Below, piece after piece: positions 1 to 676 of a stretch of 676 nucleotides of DNA (position 1 is the first letter of the stretch; each line of letters begins with the position of its first letter). This DNA comes from a phage. Below the pieces are notes generated by a model that saw only the letters and a program-made list of their open reading frames with translations, did not search any database and had not been told where the DNA came from. Location of the stretch: sequence record AF056264.1; one strand, written 5' to 3'. The translations under genes were made by a program, and so were the position numbers.

Positions 1-146
1 AAAATCGCCAATGGTTAGCGTGATCCNAATCTTAAGTCTGGCGTAATTAATCTTGTTCATGATAATCAGATTATTCAACTGTACTCTAAAGATGTGAACT
101 TAAACAAAAATTCTAGTTGAAGATCTAGAAGGTATCACACCTCACT

Positions 147-413
147 TTGACTCTGAATCCTTTCCGTGAAATCAAAGTGGAAGTCGCCCCTCAAATTGAA
201 NGTGGTCAACACCTAAATGTCAATGTGTTAAATCCTGATCAGCTTTTGGATGCCCAGAAACATCCTGAAAAATACCCTCAGTTAACCATTCCTGTTTCTG
301 GTTATGCTGTGCGCTTTAACGCACTGACACGTGAACAGCAGAACGACGTTATTAGTCCTACATTTACTCAGCGATNTNATGGGGCTGGATACGGGTTCTA
401 CGAACTACGTTAA
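147..413 (+). CDS. grcA: GrcA/YfiD-like autonomous glycyl radical cofactor (PFL C-terminal-type glycyl-radical domain); partial or disrupted as read, start and stop both uncertain
   Basis: Frame-3 translation (in-frame open from 129 after TAG 126-128) gives ...[71 protein letters not shown]... From memory this matches E. coli GrcA (...[25 protein letters not shown]...[39 protein letters not shown]) and the PflB C-terminus (...GGQHLNVNV...[38 protein letters not shown]). The REIKVEV-AP block before GGQ is GrcA-like rather than PFL-like. Radical Gly codon is ggt at 300-302. N at 201 (ngt) is predicted to be G, giving the conserved Gly-Gly. No in-frame ATG; the only candidate start is TTG 147, with a weak SD-like gaagg (128-132) 14 nt upstream, which is too far. 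Homologous region is about 132..371; the 3' end at 413 is probably a read artefact (see findings). Confidence 0.8.
291..317 (+). other. Glycyl-radical signature segment (P-V-S-G-Y-A-V-R-F), radical glycine at codon 300-302; Arg expected at the first position reads as Pro
   Basis: Codons cct gtt tct ggt tat gct gtg cgc ttt translate to PVSGYAVRF; the canonical glycyl-radical enzyme motif is RVSGYAVRF (the Gly carries the radical in PFL/GrcA). Seen directly in the sequence. Confidence 0.8.
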
Positions 414-676
414 GGTAGTCAAACAACGCATTTATCTNCCAGNTTTAAGAAAAATGTTTGGATCGAACCTNAAGACTCTCCCNGNCACGTNTNAANAACA
501 CCCCCGAAATTGGGGACATCTNCCCCATAAAAAANCCTCAACGGTTAGNTTATCACACNCNCCNGGACNGTGCTGTTGGAAGTTTGGGAACCCGCNAACN
601 CNTTAGAATAGTGGANCGGNTGAAAACCNGAANTTGAAAGGAANCCNGATCCGACTGCGNGNGAGAATTGAAGCGT

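Follow-up and report, generated by a model that had tools for sequence, protein, structure and literature searches.

An apparently truncated glycyl-radical gene in a phage sequence is very likely an intact, known GrcA-like gene of a T5-like phage seen through an error-rich read

Introduction

Among the closest described systems to the gene considered here are the spare-part glycyl-radical proteins, of which E. coli YfiD (GrcA) and Y06I of phage T4 are the only validated examples (PMC8683613). The mechanism of both comes from Wagner et al. 2001 and is used here in the form in which PMC8683613 summarises it; YfiD truncated to lack residues 1–60 still supports catalysis once bound (PMC8683613). 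Short autonomous radical domains are also known from bacteria, and NCBIfam describes them as GrcA2 (80 positions) and GrcA3 (78 positions). In T5-like phages the GrcA-like protein is a longer, 122-residue form, whose gene already carries an annotation in T5, in BF23 and in hundreds of their relatives.

Here we analyse a 676-nucleotide stretch of phage DNA from sequence record AF056264.1, which we call the window. A preliminary description of this DNA reported a GrcA-like glycyl-radical domain that lacked an N-terminal half and any credible translation start, and offered three explanations, namely frameshifting errors in the read, a pseudogene, or a truncated stand-alone radical-domain minigene of about 77 aa. 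Our comparison with finished genomes clearly favours the first over the other two. There is almost certainly no minigene and no pseudogene in the window, which would instead hold an ordinary, known gene seen via a poor read. The preliminary description did not prefer the minigene; a free-standing radical domain of that size would in any case already have bacterial counterparts in GrcA2 and GrcA3.

Results and discussion

The window and its counterpart in T5-like phages

Searching phage genomes with blastn returned T5-like phages (Tequintavirus) as collinear matches across nt 17/23–612/628 of the window. Over nt 26–420, BF23 is the best match, with 95.7% identity despite the read errors, followed by Salmonella phage oldekolle (92.7%) and then T5 (91.2%), and 369 phage records match this segment with at least 80% query coverage. 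The window is collinear with positions 1481–2114 of the BF23 locus and with the T5 equivalent and occupies the conserved position, with the tRNA-Met gene itself just beyond the window. BF23 and T5 are annotated with one and the same gene order: tRNA-Met is followed by a ribosome-binding site (RBS) and a 369-nt CDS (122 aa), and 81 nt of spacer separate this CDS from a second one of about 104 aa. The 369-nt CDS is ORF trn 2.21 of BF23 ('putative formate acetyltransferase'; CAE53183.1 / WLW40667.1) and T5.056 of T5 ('putative acetyltransferase-related protein'; YP_006884.1), and other T5-like records name its product 'pyruvate formate-lyase' or 'putative autonomous glycyl radical cofactor GrcA'. 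The CDS that follows it is called ORF trn 2.22 in BF23 and T5.055 in T5. At the protein level, phrog_1209 matches the BF23 protein along its whole length (residues 1–122 against 1–121 of 121, E = 4.6e-48), and the similarity of the window to the 122-aa T5.056 / ORF trn 2.21 protein is full-length, with residues 6–120 recovered over three frames.

The window thus shares both locus and neighbours with ORF trn 2.21 / T5.056, and it differs from the BF23/T5 gene only in ways attributable to base-calling, that is, in four indels, three CGT-to-CCT changes and Ns. The sequence contains 30 Ns among its 676 bases, 4 of them up to nt 400 and 26 beyond it, rising towards the 3' end (24 lie in nt 451–676). 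From these alignments we conclude with high confidence that the window represents one error-rich sequencing read from the tRNA-gene region of a T5-like phage; that phage would be BF23 itself or something very closely related to it. Four G-to-A differences from BF23, at nt 171, 176, 182 and 232, could be errors or strain polymorphisms. At nt 176 and nt 182, where BF23 has G, the window shares its A with T5, and both changes are synonymous (AAA, GAA). These two may be real polymorphisms rather than errors, and if so, the source is a BF23-like phage and not BF23 itself.

The features of the window, with the evidence for each, are as follows.

1–27, plus strand: poor-quality read start, with the probable GrcA-like start codon ATG at 11–13 and an unreadable RBS region (BF23 alignment).
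28–93, plus strand: GrcA-like codons 6–27 in frame 1, NLKSGVINLVHDNQIIQLYSKD (tblastn with the BF23 protein).
94–110, plus strand: GrcA-like codons 28–33, G28 without its first base and then ELKQK, in frame 3 downstream of the first missing G (BF23 and T5 DNA alignment).
111–163, plus strand: GrcA-like codons 34–51, beginning (V), in frame 2 downstream of the second missing G (tblastn, 94.7% identity).
164, plus strand: spurious extra C, TTTCGT read as TTTCCGT, shifting the gene into frame 3 (DNA alignment; one of four TCGT sites).
165–371, plus strand: codons 52–120, the glycyl-radical domain (REIKVEV...RTFTQ), in frame 3 (tblastn, phmmer, Pfam Gly_radical).
235, plus strand: C for G, TCGT to TCCT, giving a false Arg75-to-Pro (alignment; the same miscall at nt 292 for Arg94 and at nt 358 for Arg116).
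300–302, plus strand: radical-glycine codon ggt, Gly97 of the BF23 protein, in the motif RVSGYAV, here PVSGYAV (aligned to E. coli GrcA and PflB).
372–379, plus strand: final two codons and true stop, (G)CG = Ala121, atN = Met122 and tNa = TAA at 377–379 (BF23/T5 alignment).
380–457, plus strand: spacer between the two genes, including the RBS of the downstream one, aagaa at 447–451, AGGAG in BF23 (BF23 annotated RBS, locus 1930–1934).
458–676, plus strand: 5' part of the ORF trn 2.22 / T5.055 homologue, its start GTG read as TTG (DNA alignment to BF23/T5 until about nt 612–628).

The GrcA-like gene as read

The N-terminal half reported as missing is present in the window in other frames. When the window is searched with the BF23 protein by tblastn, three segments are found in collinear order (joint E = 1.3e-49): residues 6–32 at nt 28–108 in frame 1 (85.2% identity), residues 33–51 at nt 107–163 in frame 2 (94.7%) and residues 51–120 at nt 162–371 in frame 3 (91.4%). 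The preliminary description had proposed BLASTX/TBLASTN with frameshift-tolerant alignment as a check on the truncation, and the tblastn search recovers the N-terminal codons. It had also stated that an unbroken ORF of some 125 aa, opening with ATG and preceded by a Shine-Dalgarno (SD) sequence, would speak against truncation, and the finished BF23 and T5 genomes have just such a gene, with 122 codons, an ATG and an annotated RBS.

Alignment of the DNA to BF23 and T5 locates four breaks. At the first, a G is absent after nt 93 and GATGGTG is read as GATGTG; at the second, a G is absent after nt 110 and AAAAAGTT is read as AAAAATT; the third is an additional C at nt 164, where TTTCGT is read as TTTCCGT; and at the fourth a G is absent after nt 370/371, with CAGGCG read as CAGCG. 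Correcting these four indels alone yields a continuous protein, NLKSG...TFTQA, that covers codons 6–121 and in which GELKQK is restored. The end of the gene is CAGGCGATGTAA in BF23 and T5 and CAGCGATNTNA in the window, so that the true end GCG ATG TAA is read as cg atN tNa, with the stop at 377–379. The G dropped after nt 370/371 hides this stop, and frame 3 therefore runs on to 413, making the frame end at that position an artefact.

The start of the gene is less clearly read. The BF23 ATG (locus 1491) projects to nt 13 of the window, and a candidate ATG is seen at 11–13, within 2 nt of the projected position, which provides the credible start that had been thought lacking; the annotated RBS of the BF23 gene lies at locus 1481–1485. 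Because nt 1–27 align poorly to BF23, in that two bases (nt 13 and 22) are surplus and some 10 are mismatched, we grade both this ATG and the RBS as candidates only, and judging from the alignment the start codon of the GrcA-like gene is probably the ATG at about nt 11–13. The loose alignment of nt 1–27 to the BF23 RBS/start region could reflect a poor read start or a cloning/vector junction. Taken together, the window very probably spans a complete and intact 122-codon GrcA-like gene, a spacer and the start of the next gene, with four base-calling indels that spread the GrcA-like gene over frames 1, 3, 2 and 3 and mask its stop. The radical domain appears start-less and N-terminally truncated because these indels split the gene among frames; the truncation vanishes on comparison with finished genomes and is not a property of the GrcA-like gene. 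There is also a lesson of method: when a domain seems to begin right after a stop in a read that contains Ns, frameshift-tolerant alignment should come first.

The glycyl-radical domain and its family

The domain itself is genuine, as the preliminary description held. The frame-3 product matches E. coli GrcA (6owr, chain residues 53–125) with E = 7.6e-27 by phmmer, and the C-terminus of PflB (residues 698–758) with E = 5.5e-24. The Pfam Gly_radical profile (PF01228), which had been proposed as a check, scores 54.6 bits on frame 3 as read, 54.4 bits on the indel-corrected product and 66.4 bits on the BF23 orthologue, against a gathering threshold of 22.2. Within the RVxG[FWY] radical-glycine motif, VSGYAV is present with its Gly codon at nt 300–302, and the Arg that precedes it is read as Pro (cct, 291–293) through a TCGT-to-TCCT miscall. 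The radical-glycine column is invariant across 15 T5-like and 14 bacterial sequences.

Several details of the frame as first described are also present, namely the frame-3 TAG at 126–128, the lack of an ATG before the stop at 411–413, TTG at 147–149 as the first start-type codon, and gaagg at 128–132. Others need revision. Homology had been placed from about nt 132, which is some 30 nt too early, as the match to GrcA begins at nt 159 (query residue 11) and that to BF23 at nt 162; the 11-residue peptide at 129–161 that had been taken as homologous is an out-of-frame translation. Likewise, the ORF from TTG 147 encodes 88 aa as read, and not about 77.

In overall size the phage protein resembles E. 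coli GrcA/YfiD (P68066, PDB 6owr), with 122 aa against 127 aa, and the two share 74% identity over the C-terminal 74 residues of the phage protein, including the GGQHLNVNV... motif. They differ at the other end: the first ~30 residues of the T5-type protein (about nt 11–101 of the window) are unalignable with bacterial GrcA, and the GrcA-type N-terminal half (MIxGIQITKAAND...NSxWLLD...EARC) was not found, with hhalign pairing phage residues 31–122 with GrcA 41–127 and leaving the first ~30 phage residues without a counterpart. Only positions 51–126 of the NCBIfam GrcA equivalog model TIGR04365 align, and its cut-off of 170 bits is not reached by either the window (104.5–106.2) or the intact BF23 protein (121.9). 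The GrcA2 and GrcA3 families, which would be the model for a minigene, do align to the domain in the window (E = 1.8e-22 and 3.2e-29, respectively), but the scores stay well under their cut-offs (79.1 vs. 145 for NF008341 and 100.8 vs. 158 for NF038360) and the window encodes the long, 122-aa form. An Rfam scan of the window at gathering thresholds gave no match.

Read errors and rival explanations

The key question is whether the frame breaks and substitutions belong to the phage or to the read. Between nt 28 and 379 the window shows 14 discrepancies from BF23, and 12 of these fall on a reference G, a base that makes up 20% of the sequence (binomial p = 2.6e-7). These 12 comprise three dropped G, four G-to-A, three G-to-C and two G-to-N events. 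Sequence context matters as well. All four TCGT sites in the reference stretch are misread, three as TCCT and one as TCCGT (nt 164), and the TCCT misreads create false Arg-to-Pro changes at nt 235, 292 and 358. Four further CGT sites remain; the three in the gene are read correctly and the one past the stop has an extra T beside it. An aG context accounts for most of the G-to-A, G-to-N and dropped-G events, and a weak G peak following an A is a well-known artefact of dye-terminator sequencing. The damage also extends outside the gene: in the RBS of the next gene AGGAG has become aagaa (447–451) through G-to-A changes at nt 448 and 451, and the GTG start of that gene is read as ttg.

Natural variation looks very different. 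The BF23 and T5 coding sequences are separated by 22 substitutions and no indels; 18 of the substitutions are at codon position 3, all four bases are affected and 3 amino acids change. Among IMG/VR sequences, the G at the second frameshift site is present in 21 of 21 natural sequences that match there, Arg94 is encoded by CGT in all 33 natural matches, and the gene is single-frame and uninterrupted in each of the 25 loci that hold it whole. None of 15 T5-like proteins varies at S74, R75, R94 or R116, positions at which the window reads N, P, P and P. Read errors are favoured because the changes target G, depend on context, reach into the next gene, differ from natural divergence and are absent from natural copies. 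From this comparison with relatives we strongly favour the reading that the four indels and the three CGT-to-CCT changes are base-calling errors concentrated on G, while a few of the differences between the window and BF23 may be real polymorphisms.

A real pseudogene, in which the grcA-like gene of a T5-like phage had decayed through four frameshifts and three Arg-to-Pro substitutions, would account for the four frame breaks as read and for the replacement of invariant residues, including the Arg adjoining the radical Gly. The gene sits in a tRNA region amid small ORFs of unknown function, and at least one deposited T5-like genome, that of Citrobacter phage YZU-L1, has a 1-nt frameshift in it. 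Decay, however, would not restrict 12 of 14 changes to G or affect every TCGT site; at A, C and T positions nt 28–377 show essentially no neutral divergence from BF23, similar damage and Ns are found in the spacer, the next RBS and the next gene, and the complete natural copies (25/25) are intact. We therefore regard a pseudogene as very unlikely. Somewhat less probable still is the proposition that the read is faithful and that the grcA-like gene of a BF23-like phage has decayed or re-initiates, so as to make the radical domain alone from TTG 147 as a minimal spare part.

The remaining two readings are, in our view, the least probable of all. One is a minimal radical-domain minigene from TTG 147, a shortened spare part of 88 aa as read. 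An ORF from this codon to 413 does exist mechanically, and both the short bacterial families GrcA2 and GrcA3 and the catalytic support given by bound YfiD without residues 1–60 (PMC8683613) speak for such a form. Against it, the first 6 codons (nt 147–164) are an out-of-frame translation of the real gene, the C-terminal tail (nt 372–413) is read-through from a dropped G, and the codons for the N-terminus can be read further upstream in other frames. An SD at adequate spacing is absent, the only SD-like run given in the preliminary description being gaagg at 128–132; moreover, as read, Pro would replace the Arg of the RVSGY motif, and the domain falls far under the GrcA2 and GrcA3 cut-offs. The other is that the window holds the C-terminal end of a full-length pflB-type pyruvate formate-lyase (PFL) gene and not a GrcA-type gene, as might be suggested by the match to PflB 698–758 and by the resemblance of ...TFTQ to the PflB ending ...TFTQSM. 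The GrcA match is stronger, though, and begins earlier (chain residues 53–125), the sequence upstream is the N-terminus of the 122-aa phage protein following tRNA-Met and not PFL, and phrog_1209 covers the whole BF23 protein. We rejected a pflB 3' end, since in the locus alignment the upstream sequence and the neighbours fit the 122-aa phage gene.

Predicted function of the intact protein

By analogy with E. coli YfiD/GrcA and T4 Y06I, the intact 122-aa product would be a spare-part glycyl-radical protein. The PFL-activating enzyme of the host would install the radical on Gly97 of the phage protein, and the phage radical domain would dock into oxygen-cleaved host PFL, replacing the fragment lost at Gly734 of PflB. 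Docking would restore PFL activity during infection, and we infer from the two validated spare parts that the T5-type GrcA-like protein would repair host PFL in this way. No paper on what the T5-type protein does turned up in literature searches. In YfiD it is the N-terminal half that mediates binding to cleaved PFL. The T5-type protein has a distinct N-terminal segment of about 30 residues, and this sequence difference may indicate that it recognises its target differently.

Other homologues and the downstream gene

A natural truncated form appeared to be available in the 67-aa protein P0032 of Citrobacter phage YZU-L1, which we rejected, as it is a gene call downstream of a 1-nt frameshift and the N-terminal codons remain. 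In YZU-L1 (OQ570641.1; L004:1337-1704) the frameshift lies at codons 14/15, where BF23 has AATCTTGTTCAT and YZU-L1 has AACATGTTCAT, and residues 1–14 are still encoded in another frame. This frameshift is either an assembly error or natural, and the name given to P0032, 'ribonucleotide reductase subunit', is wrong either way.

The downstream gene (window 458–676; BF23 L001:1941-2255) encodes a protein that is small and basic and carries a TPCICSCWMCGNPRK cysteine motif. In the window this gene is almost unreadable owing to Ns and indels, and a tblastn search with the BF23 protein recovers only fragments with E = 0.009. The BF23 version has no Pfam match, and PHROGs give only phrog_4499 and phrog_6828, both of unknown function.

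More distant GrcA-like genes, with 62–73% identity over the radical domain, are present in four IMG/VR contigs of 85–230 kb (L028, L034, L038 and L040). A protein search also found homologues of 120–123 aa in jumbo phages, namely Klebsiella phage K64-1, Salmonella phage SE_PL and Vibrio phage D479. Given these homologues in larger phage contigs and in jumbo phages, phage-borne spare-part-like genes are therefore widespread.
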